In this document: positions 5,528-62,600 of the stretch, piece by piece
How positions within the stretch are numbered: the stretch's first letter is position 1
How the letters are laid out: the number at the start of each line of letters is the position of its first letter
Notes under the pieces: model-generated
The model's input: only the letters and a program-made list of their open reading frames with translations
Database searches by the model: none
What the model was told of the DNA's origin: nothing
IMG/VR virus record: IMGVR_UViG_3300021387_000994
Location: 32,001-96,000 of that record
Strand: one strand, 5' to 3'
Source: a virus
Lineage: Duplodnaviria; Caudoviricetes
Length of the DNA: 64,000 nt
Program-made: the position numbers and the translations under genes

Positions 5528-6187
5528 TTATTCCTCAATGAGTTGTGTTTTGATTTGGTCATCAATGGTTTCTTCTTCCTCCTCAAACAAATCATCTATT
5601 TTTACACCGTCTGCATACTTGAATTCCTCTTGTATGTATCTGTCGAGTCTTTCAAGTCTTTCCTTGGTAAATGCCTTTGATGTGAAAAGTTCCTTTGGTG
5701 TGATTGTCTCACCGTTGTCAAGACAATAGTTTCTTGAAGTTTCACTTGGAACGAAGTACAAAACCTCACCGTCTTTCTTTTCAACACGGATGTACTCATC
5801 ATTTGGTGACTTATTGTATTCTTTTTCTGTGATAAATTTCCCTTTTTGAATACCACATCTCTCAAATGAGATATATTCCTCAAGACCGACATATGGGTTC
5901 ATACCAGAAACATAGGATATATAAAATTTAACAGTTGTTGGTTTACAGAACCTGTTCTTTTCCGGTTTTGCTGTAACAATGATGCCAGTCTGCAAATTGT
6001 CAGAACCCTCCTTGAGTTTTGCCTTTGTCAAATTAAGTATTATTGATGCACCATACACCATACCAGAATTATGGTTCACAACACCATTTTCTGTTACATA
6101 ATGTTGGACATCTTCAACAGTAAGGTCATAAACATCAGTACAACAGTTTTCTTTTACACTTTTTACTTTTAATGTCTTCAATTGCAT
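5528..6187 (-). CDS. uvsX: UvsX/RecA C-terminal fragment fused to split intein C-part (IntC 6068-6187)
   Basis: 40-aa IntC with VYDLTVE..H.Y..NGVVNHN, then +1 Ser and the RecA-type SGMVYGAS...KNRF. Confidence 0.9.
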   Translation of the reverse strand: MQLKTLKVKSVKENCCTDVYDLTVEDVQHYVTENGVVNHNSGMVYGASIILNLTKAKLKEGSDNLQTGIIVTAKPEKNRFCKPTTVKFYISYVSGMNPYVGLEEYISFERCGIQKGKFITEKEYNKSPNDEYIRVEKKDGEVLYFVPSETSRNYCLDNGETITPKELFTSKAFTKERLERLDRYIQEEFKYADGVKIDDLFEEEEETIDDQIKTQLIEE

Positions 6188-7145
6188 ATTCTATATCTTT
6201 TATTATTTTTTCAATATTGTTGTTTTTAAAATATTTGTCACCGATACGAATTATTCCAATAATATCTTTTCTTTTTGATAGAATAATATTATCTCTTATT
6301 TCATCATATTCAATATCATGCCAAAAATTACCATCATATTCAAACAATATTATATTGTTTTCAAATTCAATATAACCATCGGTAAGGACATATTGTTTTC
6401 CATATTTTGAATATAATTCTGTATTTTGTACATTTATTCCTAAATGCAAATGTTTCAAACCACATAAATGTTTTGAAATTTCATTAAAGAAACACAACTC
6501 CTCTTTGGATTCATAACCTAAATTTTTCTTCCAGTATTTTTCCGGATTTAATCTGTATAATTCTTTTTGTCTTTCTGATTGTTTCTTAATTGCAGATTCA
6601 TACTCATCATCACTTTTATAATTTTCACGACACATTCCGTTTAACTTGTGAACTTGAAATATAGCATCATCCTCTGAAAATCCATTTTCAATCCAATATT
6701 GTTTTGACCACTTACATTTTTTCAGTCTTTCTTTGTATGAATATTTCTTAATCATTTTATCGGAACGTTCTTTTTGTATTTTTTTAATTGTTTCTATATA
6801 TTCCGATTCCGAAACACCCTTATCAATATAATACTCCTTACATAATGGTGACCTTTTTCTCTGTTCAAAACTTATTTTTTCATATATTTCTTCACAATTT
6901 TCCCAACCCATTGATTTCCAATAATCTGTTGACAACACAGATGATGATTTTCCACACCTCAAAGATTTTAGGTATTTGCTAATATCATCAAATTTATTCC
7001 TAATTCTATTTGACTTTGTGTTTAGAAAAACCTCATAGCATTTTTGAACAAGAGATTCATTGTTTTCATTTATGTTTGGAAAACTTTGTTTTAGAAATGA
7101 TTTGAATATTTCAATACAATATATATCCGATACCCTATACTTCAT
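6135..7145 (-). mobile_element. free-standing Vsr-like/PD-(D/E)XK homing endonuclease between the split-intein halves
   Basis: N-terminal repeated Y(W/Y)xxxG motifs; C-terminal ESKEE..DGY..FEYDGNFWH..DEIRD..IIRI; own late promoter at 7165-7172. Confidence 0.8.
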
Positions 7146-21480: not shown

Positions 21481-22485
21481 TAACAAATTCCATTTCAGAA
21501 TATAGAGTTAAACATTTTATCTCCGAGTAGAATAACCGATTCCATTTAAGAATATAGTATTAAAATACCAAAAGGTCTAATTTTATAAAAATCCAAATTA
21601 CGATTCCATTTCGGAATATAGGGTTAAATGTTGCAGACGGCGAAGTGATTGTAGCTTTCGTATTATGATTCCATTTCAGAACATAGGGTTAAACACCGCT
21701 TCGGTGGTTTTGGTTGAACTGTGTCCATTATGATTCCATAACAGAACATAGGATTAAATAATCATTCGTCCCACGTCGGACCATTGACGTAATTACGATT
21801 CCATTTCAGGTAATAAGGTTAAATAATACTTTCCGTTTTGTGGTATAATTATGGAACATTATGATTCCATTTCAGAATATAAGTTTAAACACTTGAAGAA
21901 TACGTCAAGAAAGCCGAGAAGAAATTATGATTCCATTTCAGAACATAGGGTTAAACACTATACTGTCTAAACATTGGCAATACCGTATAATTGTGATTCC
22001 ATTTCAGAACATAGGGTTAAACACTTGACTTACCATTCTTTCTTGCAACAAGTATATTGTGATTCCATTTCAGAACATAGGGTTAAACACTTCGTACCAG
22101 ATGGTTCAGATATATGTGTGCATTGTGATTCCATTTCAGAACATAGGGTTAAACACTACGATTACCTACATAGCTAACAAGACCTCCATTGTGATTCCAT
22201 TTCAGAACATAGGGTTAAACACTATACAATGTACTGAGAATACAACAGATATAATTGTGATTCCATTTCAGAACATAGGGTTAAACACTCAGAATCTGAA
22301 TCATTACGTGCAGATTTAATTGTGATTCCATTTCAGAACATAGGGTTAAACACTTGATTTGGTAACACAAAGACTTTTCCTGTATTGTGATTCCATTTCA
22401 GAACATAGGGTTAAACACTTCACAAATTTAAATCTCGTTGTCACACTTCATTGTGATTCCATTTCAGAACATAGGGTTAAACACT
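21481..22485. CRISPR. CRISPR array: 16 repeats (36-nt consensus ATTGTGATTCCATTTCAGAACATAGGGTTAAACACT) and 15 spacers, mostly 29-30 nt
   Basis: Repeat starts at 21481, 21533, 21597, 21662, 21727, 21792, 21858, 21924 (degenerate or variant) and 21990, 22056, 22122, 22188, 22254, 22319, 22384, 22450 (identical); AT-rich leader-like stretch 22486-22524. Confidence 0.97.
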
Positions 22486-22524
22486 ACGATTTATATATAA
22501 GTAAATATATCAATACTTTAACAA

Positions 22525-25572: not shown

Positions 25573-25603
25573 CAAAGATACTATTTTTTTTTCAAATATC
25601 AAA
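25573..25603 (-). promoter_or_regulatory. Bacteroidota sigma-A type promoter for cas6-cas7-cas5
   Basis: TTTG-N19-TATCTTTG on the minus strand. Confidence 0.75.
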
Positions 25604-28036: not shown

Positions 28037-28067
28037 CAAAGATACTATTTTTTCACCAATAAACAAA
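28037..28067 (-). promoter_or_regulatory. Bacteroidota sigma-A type promoter for cas3
   Basis: TTTG-N19-TATCTTTGCA on the minus strand. Confidence 0.75.
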
Positions 28068-31713: not shown

Positions 31714-34656
31714 TTAAAACAGCGGAACATCGTGTGACATGCTTATGTCGATTGGTGAATATCCCATAGCTTCTATTATTCTGTTCATTGGACTGAGAAT
31801 AAGCAAGTCGAACATTTTATCATAGTCGATTTCAAAACCACTTGCCATATCCATCGGGTATTGACCAGATGGATAACTAAATGCTTGTATCGGTTCTTGA
31901 ACTTGACAGTCTGTATAATAATCAACACCATTACGTTTTTCAATAATACCACCTTTTATAAATCTAATCTCTTGATGTTTCATTATAGTAGGAATATCAG
32001 AAACTTTTATATCACAACATTTCCAATAAGTATACTTATTACTTGGTTTGATATACAGAACACAGAGTTTATCACTATCCACTAATGTCGTATATTTTTT
32101 CTTATATTTCTCACTATTATTGAGAAGCCAATTATAAAATGCTGCTCCTTGAACTGTAACCATCGCCTTACCAAATAGTTCAACTTCATTTGTATCATTA
32201 AGAACATAGTCTGAATATTTATTCATACCTTTATTAACCGACACAGTTTCATAATTTTGTAACATAAAATTTTTCTTAACTTCTTTCATCTGTTTAACAA
32301 AACCCTCGATTGTGAATTTCTCTTGTTTGAATATCCACTTAATCAAATCCGTCATCTGCTTCTTGACCCAAGTCGAACTAGATGTCTGTGCAATCTCAAT
32401 ACCGGTCGGTTTGATTTTAGTGCAAGAATCATAGTAAACATTTGGCTCAGCCCAAGTGGTATTCTTCACATACTTTTTCTTAGCGAGCCAGATACCAGCC
32501 TCATTGTATGCCTCCAACTCGAAGTCGAGAATATTAGGTGTTCCCTGCTTGGCAGCATAGTCCTCGTGTATCTTCTTCAAGAAGTCCTTCATAAACACAC
32601 GGTCAAGAGTAAGACAGAACTCACGACCTGCTGGTTCTATTTTATCAATCTCAAAATCATACTTTTCTTTATCGATTGAATCGACATCAAAATATTGTCT
32701 TGCATCATCTTCAGTCGGATAACCACCCGAAGACACATACACGAATTCTTTCTGGTCATTCGACTTGTTAATCTTGGTGAGTCTCCACACGTCGTGCAAC
32801 ATCCAATCAGTTGAATTTACAATCTCATAAAATGAACAGTATACGCTATCCGTATCTATGTATCTACTTATAGGTGAGATAGTTACATTTTTATCTGGGA
32901 TACAAACACCCATTTTTTTATGTGTTTTTTCATCAATAAGCCAACCTTTTTGTGCCCATAGATTCATAAGTCTCTCGGCGTTCAAGATGGCGTGCTTACC
33001 TTGTTTTGTAACAGATTCAGCAATATTCTTGTTATAGAAGTAGAAACCGGAGAATCCGAAAGCACCATAGATACCGTTAATTACAACCTTTGTACCAAGT
33101 TGATAGTTATTGTAGATGTCTGCTTGTGTGGTACAGAAAGTAAGAACATCATCCATCTGTTTACCAATCAAATCACCAAGGTCGTTCTTTTTCATATAGT
33201 CTTCTATCTCTTCTTGACTTGCACCATTGTGCATAAGGTCTTTCAAGTCATAGTAGCACTGTGTGTATTTGAACGATGTCTTCTTGTATGCCTTTCTTTT
33301 GAAGTAAAGGTCTGTGATAATTTTTTTCAAATTACCATCCTCTTTTTCATATACTGCACCAGAAGCACATACAATATAACCCTTATCTCTCCACTGTTGT
33401 TTCAGTTCCTCATCATCTTCGGGAAGCATCTTGACAAGTGTTTCCGGACCGATATTGAACTGTCTCATCAAAGACGGATAAAGTGAGGCGTAGTCGTTAC
33501 ATGTGCAATACTTGTGAAGACCTGGAACAGGCTGCTTGACGAATGCCCCCTCATATTTCTCACCATCACCTTTCTTCTTTGGCTTTGAAGAAACTGCAAG
33601 GACACGACCTTGTTCAGCAAACTTCTGTCTTAAAAGATTTTCAGGAATATATGTAGTAGAGAAACAATCCATTGCACGGATATGACCCAACCATGCAGTG
33701 GTGATACCACAAGTCAATGCATTACATTTTTCGTGGATGAGTTTTACGAGACCACAGTCGATAGCATTATAATACACATACTTCTGAAAGTTGTTGTTGA
33801 ACATATCATCGAGACTCTCACTGTGCTGTACTTTTTTGATACCACAGAGTTTCTCACCGATATAGTCGAGTTTGTAATTCTCATTGGAGTTCCAAGTCCA
33901 TTTCTTGTATGCTTTCAAATAGTCGATAAGACCGACGTGACATGGACGCTCAAACTGACCAGTCATTTTATGAGTAGGTGACGAAATGTTTATGTTTATT
34001 TCAAGTTTTTTCGCCCTGTTTATGATATACCTCCAGTCATATTCCTCAAAGTTCCAACCGGTCATCATGGCCATATTCGGAACAAGTTTGTTCAAGAAGA
34101 AATACAACATGTCATATTCCGTATTGAAACAACGGAAAGCAAACTTGAACTTACGGTTTACTTGTGCAAAATGGTCGTCGATTTGCTTTTGAATATCCTC
34201 GATTTGTTTTCTATTTAAGTTCTTTCCACCAGAAAGAACCATAATAGTATCATTTGGGCAACACACACCAATGACAGTTATCGGCTTATCCGCCTTTTCT
34301 GGGTCAGGTTTTCCCTCTTGCATCAAGTTCTCAATATCTATGAAAAACATTTCAGGAAGATTGTATGAGAATATCCTTTCCTTTACATCTTCCGGAAGAT
34401 TGTCAACAATCTCATACATCCTATATCTATTCAAGACATGTTTTGGATTTGTGAGATTCAACTTATGTTTCCATACTTTGTCTTTGTTCCAGTTCTTGAC
34501 TGTTCCACCAGGTTCATCTTTTTTGTCGATGGGTTCTGTGAGCCAAGTGTACCAATCCTTTTCTTGAATTGGAATCACATCGATGTGTGTCTTGTGGTCA
34601 TCTCCCCAATAGGAAATTTCCAAGTTTGTTCCGTTTTGTACTAAATCTAATAACAT
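31714..34656 (-). CDS. gp43: family B DNA polymerase (gp43-like)
   Basis: Exonuclease FIDIE, GWNFEEYD, YNAID; polymerase DYASLYPS, KVVINGIYG, YIDTDS, KKKY. Confidence 0.95.
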   Translation of the reverse strand: MLLDLVQNGTNLEISYWGDDHKTHIDVIPIQEKDWYTWLTEPIDKKDEPGGTVKNWNKDKVWKHKLNLTNPKHVLNRYRMYEIVDNLPEDVKERIFSYNLPEMFFIDIENLMQEGKPDPEKADKPITVIGVCCPNDTIMVLSGGKNLNRKQIEDIQKQIDDHFAQVNRKFKFAFRCFNTEYDMLYFFLNKLVPNMAMMTGWNFEEYDWRYIINRAKKLEININISSPTHKMTGQFERPCHVGLIDYLKAYKKWTWNSNENYKLDYIGEKLCGIKKVQHSESLDDMFNNNFQKYVYYNAIDCGLVKLIHEKCNALTCGITTAWLGHIRAMDCFSTTYIPENLLRQKFAEQGRVLAVSSKPKKKGDGEKYEGAFVKQPVPGLHKYCTCNDYASLYPSLMRQFNIGPETLVKMLPEDDEELKQQWRDKGYIVCASGAVYEKEDGNLKKIITDLYFKRKAYKKTSFKYTQCYYDLKDLMHNGASQEEIEDYMKKNDLGDLIGKQMDDVLTFCTTQADIYNNYQLGTKVVINGIYGAFGFSGFYFYNKNIAESVTKQGKHAILNAERLMNLWAQKGWLIDEKTHKKMGVCIPDKNVTISPISRYIDTDSVYCSFYEIVNSTDWMLHDVWRLTKINKSNDQKEFVYVSSGGYPTEDDARQYFDVDSIDKEKYDFEIDKIEPAGREFCLTLDRVFMKDFLKKIHEDYAAKQGTPNILDFELEAYNEAGIWLAKKKYVKNTTWAEPNVYYDSCTKIKPTGIEIAQTSSSTWVKKQMTDLIKWIFKQEKFTIEGFVKQMKEVKKNFMLQNYETVSVNKGMNKYSDYVLNDTNEVELFGKAMVTVQGAAFYNWLLNNSEKYKKKYTTLVDSDKLCVLYIKPSNKYTYWKCCDIKVSDIPTIMKHQEIRFIKGGIIEKRNGVDYYTDCQVQEPIQAFSYPSGQYPMDMASGFEIDYDKMFDLLILSPMNRIIEAMGYSPIDISMSHDVPLF

Positions 34657-59694: not shown

Positions 59695-62600
59695 ATACTT
59701 TACCCAAATCATTTACATCTTTTGTCACTCTTTTCTTTTCAGAAAGTTTATCTAGTTTTTTCAAAACATTTCCAATCTTTTCACTCGTGTCAAGTTTTCC
59801 AAGATTTCTTACATTTTCTTGTGTTCCTTGATTTGGATATATATTCTCAATTTCTTCCACTATCGGTCTTGTTGTTTCATCCGGAGTCACATCACCGATA
59901 TATTCTTGTGTGTGTCTTCTGTTATCTGTAGGATAGATGTTTCCAAGTTGTGAGACATTCTGTCTTGTTGTTTCATCTTGTGTAACGTCACCGATATGTC
60001 TTTGAACAAGTGGAGTATCTTGTTGTGGATATATGTTGTCTATAACCTCCACTATCGGTCTGTTTGGGTCATTTGGCAACACATCACCCAAGTTACTTAC
60101 GTTTCTACTATTATTAACTGTCGGATAAACATTTCCAATCTGTGTAACATTTGGTACTTGTGGGTCGTTTGGTAGAACGTCACCCAAGTTTCTTACATTT
60201 ACACCCGATTGTTGATTTGGATATATATTTCCTATATTCGTTGTGTTTGGAACTTGTGGGTCGTTAGGTAGAACGTCACCAATATATCTTTGTCTTCTTG
60301 GTGTGGTAAGTGTCGGATAAACATTTCCAATCTGTGTAACATTAGGTACCTGTGGGTCGTTTGGTAATACATCTCCAATATAACCTTCTATCGGTGGAGT
60401 AGTATTTTGTGGATACACATTTCCTATATTACCGATTGGTGGAACTTGTGGGTCGTTTGGTAATACATCTCCTATATACCCTTGAATTGTTGTTCTTCTA
60501 TTTGGTGGATACACATTTCCTAAATTACCGATTGGTGGAACTTGTGGGTCGTTTGGTAATACATCATCTATTGTGCTGATTATATATGATGGATTGTCAC
60601 TCGGCAATACATCACCCAAACCAGTTACTATTCCGTTTGACATTGTTGTATTTACACCATTAACAACAACTCCACTTCCATGTTCCATAGGTACTGATTC
60701 CAAGTTGTCGTTATCATTGACATTACCTATTCGTTTTACATATCCGTTTGCAACGACAGATGTTACACCATTGAGTTGTGGAACGCCAAGATTAATTGTT
60801 GTGTTGTTTGTATCAGGAGAAGAGTTATAGTCTATTGTACCAACGGTACTTGTATTGTTGCCTGGGAAAACTATATGTTCTATTTCTTCCAAATATGAAC
60901 TATATACATTACCTCTATCTTGTCCAACTGATGCAGCCACACTTGTGGCGAGATATTTGAATAATCGTTCAAACTCTTTTCTTGACTCGGTTAAATTCTC
61001 ATTTACAGATTCAATTGCACCATGTGTTGCAATACCTTCCATATATTTGTCTTTCATTTCAACACCTCTGTTTCTATTTAACCTTAGTCTTCTATACTCT
61101 TCAAAATCGTCATTATTGACATTACCTAATGGAGACTTGTCAAAATATCCATGTTTAACAACTTCATAATTTTGTGAACCATTATCTTTTGGTGTATTTT
61201 CTAGTGGGTCGTTGATATTCACATTTCCAAGACTTGAATACTTGTTTCTTTTGGTTTTTGAAATGATTCCGAGTATATTTGGAACTTTTCTGTCATCTTT
61301 TATAGATTTTTCAAACTTGTCATTTTCATTCACATTACCTATGGATGAAACCATATAGTCTTGTACGGTTGAATTTATTCCATTAAGTTGTGGTTCGTCT
61401 ATCTGTGAATTAGAACGTTCTTTTGCTGGGTCGTTAAGATTGACGTTACCAAGTGGAGAGTTCAACATATAGTTCATCTTATTAAGCAAAGTTTCAGGAT
61501 GTTCTGATTTCTGTTGTGGAACAGTACTATGTCCGTCAAGTCCCTCCAAATCACCAGTAAATTCTATGTTGTTCTCTTGAACTTTAATTCTTCTATTGTT
61601 GTCATTGACGTTCAAAAGACCATTTAATTTTGGTTTTCTTGCATCAAATTTTTCAGAAGTCATTGTATATGCCTTTGTTCCAAGTGGATATTTTAACTCA
61701 TCAAGTTTTTTAGCATTTCTATTTGAAATACTAACCGATGGTCTATGTGGTCCTCTTGAAAGATTTCTTAGAAGATTATGTTTCATGTCTTCGAAAGGCA
61801 GATAATTTATCACACAGTCACTATAACTGAATGTGAAGTTTGTCATTCTCATATCACCACGGTCTGCATTAGAAATATTGTCGAAGATACTTCCGGTTTC
61901 TTCTGGTATAATTTCACATCCGAAGAATTTGAACTCGATTGCAGACATTGAATTGAGTGCAACTTCTACAATCTTTGGAATATTAAGTTGTCCACTTTTT
62001 CTTATTGCCCTACCCAATGATGTTGTCATCTTATAGAAGTTCCTTATGTCATGTACAAAAACAGAACAATTAAATCTTCTGAGATTGACTGGTACACGTT
62101 CTCGACGGTACTGTGCATCATATACTGCATTAAAGTATTTGTTGAACATTCCACTAACTTTTAAATCAAGTGATTCGTAGATTGTTATAGATATTTTATT
62201 ATCAATTGAACCACGAAAACTATCCTTTACACCATAATTGTTTTTGTATGCTTCGTCTAGACCGGTTATAGTCTGCATAAGATATGGGTACTCTGTTGTG
62301 AGTCTTGCCATACCACGAATAAAACCAAGCATGTCATATACGGTTTGTGGGGCATCTGGTATGGTTGTTTTGTTACTATTTTGGAATGTTTGGTCATCTT
62401 CTACTCCAGACGACACATCACCAGTATGGAGTCTTGCATCCTCACTTGCCCTTCTAGAACCATTATATTTAATTTCCTCGTCATCTTCTATGTCCGATAT
62501 TGATTCATTCACATCAATCAAATCGTTCTTTACATTTTCCAAATCCTTTTCTCTCTGTGAATATTGGTCATTCTCATATTTGGCAGTTGTCTCTCTTACT

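Follow-up and report, generated by a model that had tools for sequence, protein, structure and literature searches.

A large rumen phage carries a CRISPR array directly beside four cas genes. Both lie in a 64,000-nucleotide (nt) stretch, positions 32,001 to 96,000 of IMG/VR record IMGVR_UViG_3300021387_000994; we refer to this whole stretch as the window, and coordinates are given within it unless another sequence is named. The genes form a minimal phage-borne type I interference module, comprising Cas3, a classical Cas6, Cas7fv, and a Cas5fv-like protein. The array has its length class, repeat ends, 29–30-nt spacers, and polarity in common with type II-C arrays. Among the possible writers of its spacers, the Cas1-Cas2 of a Bacteroidota host's II-C system fits best, a reading that we place first and consider somewhat short of probable.

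Joining this reading to the transcription direction and the flanking motif described below, we tentatively propose that the host's class 2 (II-C) adaptation machinery supplies spacers to a type I phage module. The phage would keep a repeat of II-C/VI-B style for the host to write, would read the opposite strand with its own Cas6, and would recognize TRTTTTN through its Cas5fv-like subunit, this motif being the reverse complement of a host Cas9 motif, NAAAAYA. Taken as one joint claim, this is possible and distinctly uncertain. An earlier note on this DNA, made without database searches, had suggested a class 1 effector supplied with spacers by host II-C Cas1-Cas2. The class 1 module and the class 2-style array are borne out, and no integrase was seen; the host II-C system as writer is a best fit only.

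The Array and Its cas Genes

The array consists of 16 copies of a 36-nt repeat at a period of 65–66 nt (Table 1), 15 of them recovered by fuzzy matching and the other a decayed copy near 21533-21568. As the bases on both sides of the repeat vary across copies, 36 nt is the true repeat unit; the copy at window:22450-22485 serves as reference. The plus-strand repeat starts with ATTGTGATT, and on the minus (cas) strand the repeat starts with AGTGT and ends with AATCACAAT. Its fold is weak on either strand (-2 kcal/mol, z 0.9), and the CRISPR-DR families of Rfam do not match it. The dimensions given in the earlier note, a 36-nt repeat with spacers of 29 or 30 nt, held when re-measured on the sequence: among the 13 intact spacers, five are 29 nt long and eight are 30 nt.

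Eight identical repeats stand at the right, cas-proximal end, with the seven newest spacers (W1–W7) between them, and the repeats farther left are increasingly decayed, with 1 to 9 mismatches. This leftward rise in decay agrees with growth at the cas-proximal end, which the earlier note had read from the identical copies beside the AT-rich junction at 22486-22524. Since protospacers are found in other phages (see below), this is a working CRISPR array, and a chance tandem repeat is excluded.

All four cas genes are on the minus strand, directly right of the array. Cas7fv is matched by NCBIfam NF040577 (E 1.5e-22, yet under the curated cut-off), by the Cas7fv profile of PADLOC (E 5e-17), by PDB chain 5o6u_C, which is Cas7fv of Shewanella (E 5e-10), and by a precomputed assignment to Pfam PF28157. 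Cas6 matches Pfam PF01881 (E 3e-7) and PADLOC Cas6b (E 2.6e-21). The fourth protein, of 389 amino acids (aa), has no sequence match in Pfam, NCBIfam, PADLOC, or PDB. Its AlphaFold2 model has a predicted local distance difference test score of 64. The top two rows returned by Foldseek for this model are Cas5fv chains, 5o6u_F (E 0.019) and 9g44_B (E 0.039). VIA-align gave Z values of 6.0–6.7, with 6.7 to both 5o6u_F and Cmr3, level with other Cas5/Cmr3 repeat-associated mysterious proteins (RAMPs). The position of the gene is conserved, as it adjoins cas7fv in six loci. These observations lend weak support to a putative Cas5fv-like function.

The earlier note had assumed class 1 effector genes beside the array, and Cas3, Cas6, Cas7fv, and a putative Cas5-like protein lie there. 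It had also allowed for cas1 or cas2 elsewhere in the phage. Six-frame searches for Cas1 and Cas2 found neither in the phage record of 133,579 bases (133.6 kilobases, kb), which is rated 39% complete.

Spacer Targets and Flanking Motif

The newest seven spacers were scanned against IMG/VR, and five of them have protospacers there, in two groups of other phages (Table 1). One group is a 38.5-kb contig, G001, matched by W2, W3, and W6; the second consists of three contigs, G405-G407, matched by W4 and W7. W1 and W5 have no IMG/VR match, no spacer of the array has a protospacer among the INPHARED phages, and the 133.6-kb record contains no self-targets. The target contigs have no other sequence in common with the phage, and being otherwise unrelated to it, they indicate that the array records conflict with other phages. 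PHROGs assigned no function to the target genes, save a weak tail-fiber match for the W4 target.

Read in the minus sense, the 5′ flank fits TRTTTTN exactly in four of the five protospacers, and the 3′ flanks show no pattern. T[AG]TTTT has a frequency of 2.1e-3 per position in G001, yet it stands exactly at -7 to -2 in four of the five. TTT followed by A or G occurs directly 5′ of the target in three. Deriving a protospacer-adjacent motif (PAM) in this way had been put forward as a check in the earlier note, and the result is TRTTTTN, or NAAAAYA as the reverse complement. The newest spacer of the related locus L012 was dropped from the derivation; its match covers 24/30 nt, lies in a repeated gene, and is mismatched at the seed end.

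Near the W2 protospacer, about 33 nt to its 3′ side (L138 ~765-775; IMGVR_UViG_3300021387_000735), the sequence TGGAATCACAA is the same as the array repeat's last 12 bases without the final T, which may be chance. Elsewhere in G001, two stretches (L143 5400-5470 and 6226-6276) are 80–94% identical to many Bacteroidaceae genomes. They are probably transfer RNA (tRNA)-like genes and would hint at a Bacteroidaceae host for G001.

Table 1. Features of the CRISPR locus (window coordinates; all on the minus strand)
Feature	Position	Strand	Remarks
CRISPR array	21481..22485	-	16 x 36-nt repeats; identical copies 21990-22485, decayed 21481-21989
Spacer W7	22026..22055	-	30/30 nt in G405, 25/30 in G407; 5′ flank AAGTGTTT
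Spacer W6	22092..22121	-	28/30 nt in G001; 5′ flank CTATTTTA
Spacer W4	22224..22253	-	30/30 nt in three related contigs, G405-G407; 5′ flank ATATTTTG
Spacer W3	22290..22318	-	26/29 nt in G001; 5′ flank CTATTTTG
Spacer W2	22355..22383	-	28/29 nt in G001; 5′ flank CTGTTTTT
Leader-side junction	22486..22524	-	39 nt, 15% G+C, between cas5fv-like stop codon and newest repeat
Cas5fv-like RAMP protein, 389 aa	22525..23694	-	Putative; structural support weak
Cas7fv-like backbone, 363 aa	23746..24837	-	Profile and PDB matches
Classical Cas6 endoribonuclease, 231 aa	24857..25552	-	Cas6b-like, unlike Cas6f
Bacteroidota-type promoter-like site	25573..25603	-	TTTG ... TAGTATCTTTG; upstream of cas6
Cas3 HD nuclease-helicase, 804 aa	25611..28025	-	HD and helicase domains only, without Cas2 fusion
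Bacteroidota-type promoter-like site	28037..28067	-	Upstream of cas3

Transcription Direction and Possible Mechanism

The earlier note had left the direction of transcription unresolved, with the minus strand as one option. Transcription from this strand is supported by the decay at the cas-distal end, by the motif, which is on the 5′ side needed by a type I effector in the minus sense only, and by the conservation of the repeat. In a comparison of 51 repeat variants drawn from four arrays, conservation is highest at positions 27-32 and 34-35 (GAATCA.AA), which span the 8-nt handle expected after cleavage by a classical Cas6. The handle predicted in the earlier note, AUCACAAU, lies in this best-conserved part of the repeat. 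A shorter CRISPR RNA (crRNA) had been predicted as well; this stands for the guide (29–30 vs 32 nt) but not for the untrimmed crRNA, which would be 65–66 nt long.

We envisage that the array would be transcribed together with the cas operon or just after it and that Cas6 would cut 8 nt from the 3′ end of the repeat, giving the AUCACAAU handle. A Cas7fv/Cas5fv complex could then locate TRTTTTN-flanked targets in co-infecting phages and recruit Cas3 to degrade the target phage. New spacers would most likely be inserted during infection by host II-C Cas1-Cas2 acting in trans, with Cas9 choosing the motif.

Promoter-like sites precede cas6 and cas3 (Table 1), and none occurs within the array. The two sites have a 17-nt block in common, ending in TAGTATCTTTG, and the cas6-side site agrees at 23 of 25 positions with the internal promoter-like part of a II-C repeat from a rumen Prevotella (L039). 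The pattern TTTG-N17-21-TAnnTTTG is not enriched window-wide (6 sites vs 3.95 expected). Judged by their sequence, these sites hint at Bacteroidota as the host phylum.

Likeness to Type II-C Arrays

To describe the arrays that the phage repeat resembles, we use a scan of bacterial genomes, one per species, for ATCACAAY at 58–78-nt spacing, which returned at least 120 loci, all of them selected on this 3′ motif. At least 79 arrays from the scan end in AATCACAAC, with repeats of 47 or 36 nt, and in these 93–95% of the spacers are 29–30 nt long. Cas9 is encoded in all seven of the loci tested, four of which have a Cas1 match too. On the cas strand, the scan arrays read NNTGT...AATCACAAC, with a perfect first repeat and a degenerate last, cas-distal one. 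The phage repeats likewise start with NNTGT and end with AATCACAAY, the relatives of the window array ending in AATCACAAC or AATCAAAAC. It is this set of features in an integrase-less locus (repeat ends, length class, a 29–30-nt ruler, and polarity, all as in II-C and also in VI-B) that leads us to host II-C writing.

The flanking motif can be compared with II-C systems as well. Bacteroidota II-C PAMs are A-rich and offset, as in NNAAAG (PMC10309648) and N5TAAA (PMC8092290), and the phage motif in reverse complement, NAAAAYA, is likewise of this kind. As a control we used a II-C array of Bacteroides cellulosilyticus DSM 14838 (L093; contig_26, 5567-6647), whose long motif is likewise leader-facing and has a two-base offset. 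Two L093 spacers match the human-gut phage scaffolds MT836072.1 and MT836212.1 perfectly, both with ATGTACNN leader-facing, which corresponds to a Cas9 PAM of about NNGTACAT. Thus, long, offset leader-facing motifs are what II-C writing produces.

Searches for further traces of a II-C system gave the following. The 47-nt II-C repeats contain a TTTG...TAnnTTTG-like element and the phage repeat has none, and no anti-repeat of a trans-activating CRISPR RNA (tracrRNA) longer than 12 nt occurs in the 133.6-kb record. A search for Cas9 RuvC_III gave no match, its control being uninformative, and the 1152-aa and 1199-aa proteins beside the II-C-like arrays L035 and L059 have no Cas match. No spacer against the phage or its target phages was found in about 100 bacterial arrays from the genome scan. 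Among 401 Bacteroidaceae and 401 Bacteroidales genomes (802 in all), with the best two candidates per genome considered, there were no such host spacers, the matches being tRNA-like or domain-level only.

One cultured phage and one group of megaphages contain sequence resembling parts of the B. cellulosilyticus II-C array. The cultured Bacteroides phage BS162P1 (OP172706.1) has a single copy of a Bacteroides II-C repeat at 61798-61834, to which all 15 repeat copies of the B. cellulosilyticus array map at 94% identity; this solitary repeat could be an RNA decoy against Cas9. A 48-nt leader stretch upstream of the first repeat of the same array matches Prevotella Lak-B megaphages (MK250020-MK250028, at position about 216–223 kb) with 83% identity (E 9e-3), a weak match that may reflect low-complexity, T-rich sequence.

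Related Loci and Array Turnover

The same cassette accompanies relatives of Cas7fv (34–79% identity) on contigs as long as 383 kb, and six related phage loci contain this cassette and the same repeat family. Wherever the DNA extends beyond the cas5fv-like gene, there is an array, and in L012, L014, L015, and L149 this has a related 36-nt repeat and a 64–67-nt period. The array begins 5 nt past the cas5fv-like stop codon in L012, L014, and L015, so any leader signal must be within coding sequence in these loci; the equivalent junction in L016 is 30 nt. The 5-nt gap itself (L012 12226-12230, L014 12166-12170, and L015 5821-5825) reads AATGT or AGTGT and mimics the first five bases of the repeat. 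No Cas1 or Cas2 was found among the called genes in about 10 kb around L009, L012, L014, L015, and L016, or in L149.

The exact repeat and its family pattern are absent from IMG/VR outside the phage's own record, and a protein-based scan of IMG/VR with Cas7fv gave no match. The family pattern has three matches in JGI metagenomes, which are cassette-type or too short to judge, L149 being a full cassette. Pattern searches of IMG/VR and JGI metagenomes thus found no donor array with this repeat outside the cassette, and the repeat family travels with this cassette, in phage-like contigs.

Loci L015 and L149 show how such arrays change. Their flanking DNA is 88–94% identical, and eight trailer-side spacers are common to both at 93–100% identity; the cas-proximal spacers, seven in L015 and six in L149, are unrelated between the two. 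This pattern is the usual signature of polarized acquisition, at the cas-proximal end and without a nearby integrase gene. Four cas-proximal repeats of L015 are near-identical.

Within the same arrays (L015 5826-6981 and L149 7430-8456), the repeats in front of identical spacers show as many as six differences. Units are missing or inserted between common spacers, and hybrid repeats stand before identical spacers. This suggests that recombination between repeats, within or between arrays, and deletion also shape them.

In an alternative, unlikely on balance and the best of those considered, no integrase acts now, and a captured array of II-C/VI-B type changes by deletion and by recombination with the arrays of co-infecting relatives, with selection by the effector giving the T-rich motif. 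The hybrid repeats and the dissimilar repeats of lineage-specific units are as this account expects, as are the heavy repeat decay in the window array, L015, and L149 and the identity of the window array in three assemblies. Copying of the first repeat, by contrast, predicts runs such as the eight identical cas-proximal repeats of the window array and the four near-identical ones of L015. Moreover, five of the seven spacers between the identical repeats match extant phages at 26–30 of 29–30 nt and are thus recent, and a donor array with this repeat was not found outside the cassette in IMG/VR or JGI metagenomes.

Polarized turnover needs some integrase, and the phage or its relatives may encode an adaptation module of their own in the unsampled part of the genome, with the likeness to II-C inherited or convergent. 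The 39% completeness and the existence of longer contigs (250 kb and 383 kb) leave room for it. We nevertheless regard such a module as rather unlikely: Cas1 and Cas2 were not found in 133.6 kb or in the surroundings of six cassettes, adaptation genes normally adjoin the array, and nearly all huge-phage CRISPR systems lack Cas1, Cas2, and Cas4 (PMC7162821).

Which Machinery Writes the Spacers

Several observations weigh against spacer writing by a host II-C system. We infer this writing from features of the array. The II-C reference set was chosen by its 3′ motif, and the likeness of the repeat interior to II-C is not significant, since 400 of 2000 shuffles reach the observed score; for this reason we dropped an apparent interior likeness to II-C repeats from the rumen, L126 among them. 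A leader motif common with II-C was dropped too, as the leaders share none and L012 and L015 lack the T-run found near -55 in II-C. A II-C system with the PAM NAAAAYA was not found in these searches. The flank of W7 is off-consensus or slipped and keeps only TTT beside the target, and the T-rich motif is also compatible with type V-A (TTTV) and with a TTN PAM intrinsic to type I.

The arrays themselves add to these points. The window array is identical in all three readable copies (including L009 and L011), which may stem from one data set, so turnover is shown for sister lineages only. The lineage-specific units of L149 have dissimilar repeats, a pattern better explained by recombination or great age than by the first repeat having been copied recently. 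Finally, 61% of the genome is unseen, and a 250-kb contig of the same phage was read over about 21 kb only, so a distant cas1-cas2 is possible.

The T-rich motif leads to a further candidate, a host type V-A module (Cas1-Cas2-Cas4) writing spacers in trans. The earlier note had called the 36/30 geometry typical of II-C and VI-B; it does fit both, but that statement was too narrow, as V-A repeats in Bacteroidaceae are also 36 nt long. Of 401 Bacteroidaceae genomes, 25 contain V-A arrays, whose repeats are 36 nt and whose spacers lie around 28–29 nt, and V-A adaptation selects a T-rich 5′ PAM such as a type I effector needs; the three protospacers with TTT and then A or G directly 5′ would suit it. 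What separates II-C from V-A is the narrow 29–30-nt spacer distribution and the repeat ends alone. V-A spacers range over 26–32 nt, with 48% at 29–30 nt, vs all 13 here; the II-C ruler makes this outcome about 5,000 times likelier than the V-A one does (0.93^13 vs 0.48^13). V-A repeats start with G[GT]C and end with TCTACT...GTAGAT, neither end being common with the phage repeat, and TTTV does not account for the T at -7 or the purine at -6, both of which are conserved. We therefore consider V-A writing improbable.

It is very improbable that the array works for a class 2 effector of the host (Cas9 with a tracrRNA, or Cas13b) rather than for the neighboring type I genes. The repeat ends are II-C-like, and host-like repeats in the absence of effectors are known from some huge phages (PMC7162821). 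Against this, the repeat family occurs only alongside the cas6-cas7fv-cas5fv-cas3 cassette and has diverged together with it, its interior is unlike that of all II-C repeats sampled, a promoter in the style of the 47-nt II-C repeats is lacking, the 133.6 kb contain no anti-repeat longer than 12 nt, and the 3′ end, where a Cas6-made handle would be expected, is spared by decay.

The upkeep of phage-borne arrays, almost always without adaptation genes, is an open question for which this family is a concrete case: it offers a cassette in several rumen phage lineages, turnover, targets, a motif, and a candidate donor in the host II-C system. If host II-C writing is correct, a virus borrows immune memory across CRISPR classes and genomes. 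Adaptation in trans would then extend from cases internal to a chromosome (VI-B/II-C, III/I, and IV-A/I-E) to a virus that uses a host integrase, and a type I complex would be seen to cope with a Cas9-style motif. There may also be practical interest in a compact module of four genes that has a T-rich PAM and takes guides of 30 nt.

Comparison with Known Systems

Both adaptation in trans and phage CRISPR loci without an integrase are already known (PMC8092290, PMC7162821), and the present combination was not found in the literature searched: it describes neither a cassette that joins Cas6 to Cas7fv and a Cas5fv-like protein nor a class 1 module with a II-C-like repeat. The CRISPR loci of huge phages (PMC7162821) likewise consist of an effector and an array without Cas1, Cas2, or Cas4 and have spacers against competing phages, and use of host machinery was already proposed for them. 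That survey covers a I-C variant, type II, and type V, with a median of six repeats vs 16 here.

In its effector, the phage module is closest to type I-Fv (I-F2) of Shewanella putrefaciens CN-32 (PDB 5O6U; PMC4937334). Both have a Cas7fv-type backbone and a Cas3 nuclease and lack Cas8 and a small subunit; the putative Cas5fv-like protein would stand in for the large subunit, as Cas5fv does in I-Fv. I-Fv has Cas6f, a 28-nt hairpin repeat, and 32-nt spacers, whereas the phage has a Cas6b-like enzyme, a weakly structured 36-nt repeat, and spacers of 29–30 nt. I-Fv also has Cas1 and a Cas2-Cas3 fusion, whereas the phage Cas3 is unfused and no Cas1 was found in 133.6 kb. The motif is GG in I-Fv and T-rich here, and the system described here is carried by a phage.

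In its array, the phage locus resembles II-C systems of Bacteroidota and other phyla, with which it has in common the ends NNTGT...AATCACAAC, the 36-nt subclass, the cas-proximal leader, and a degenerate cas-distal repeat. It differs from them in having no cas9, cas1, cas2, tracrRNA, or promoter within the repeat and in its unrelated repeat interior, and the functional phage transcript would be the strand opposite to the II-C crRNA.

The closest precedent for the proposed writing is the VI-B system of Flavobacterium columnare, whose arrays, with repeats of 36 nt, lack cas1 and cas2 and are filled in trans by II-C Cas1-Cas2 (PMC8092290). VI-B and II-C repeats share only a leader-distal GTTGT motif there, the II-C repeat is about 11 bp longer, and the PAM end is leader-facing (PMC8092290). 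The phage effector differs: it is a class 1 complex, targets DNA, works with Cas3, and has to check a PAM for itself. The phage array is carried on a virus, whereas the VI-B array is on the same chromosome as the II-C system, and writing in trans, demonstrated by experiment in F. columnare, is deduced here. As judged from the published description of VI-B, the two have in common the lack of cas1 and cas2, a 36-nt repeat, spacers of about 30 nt, the leader-distal GTTGT/ACAAC, transcription from the leader into the array, and a leader-facing motif that is the reverse complement of a Cas9-type PAM.

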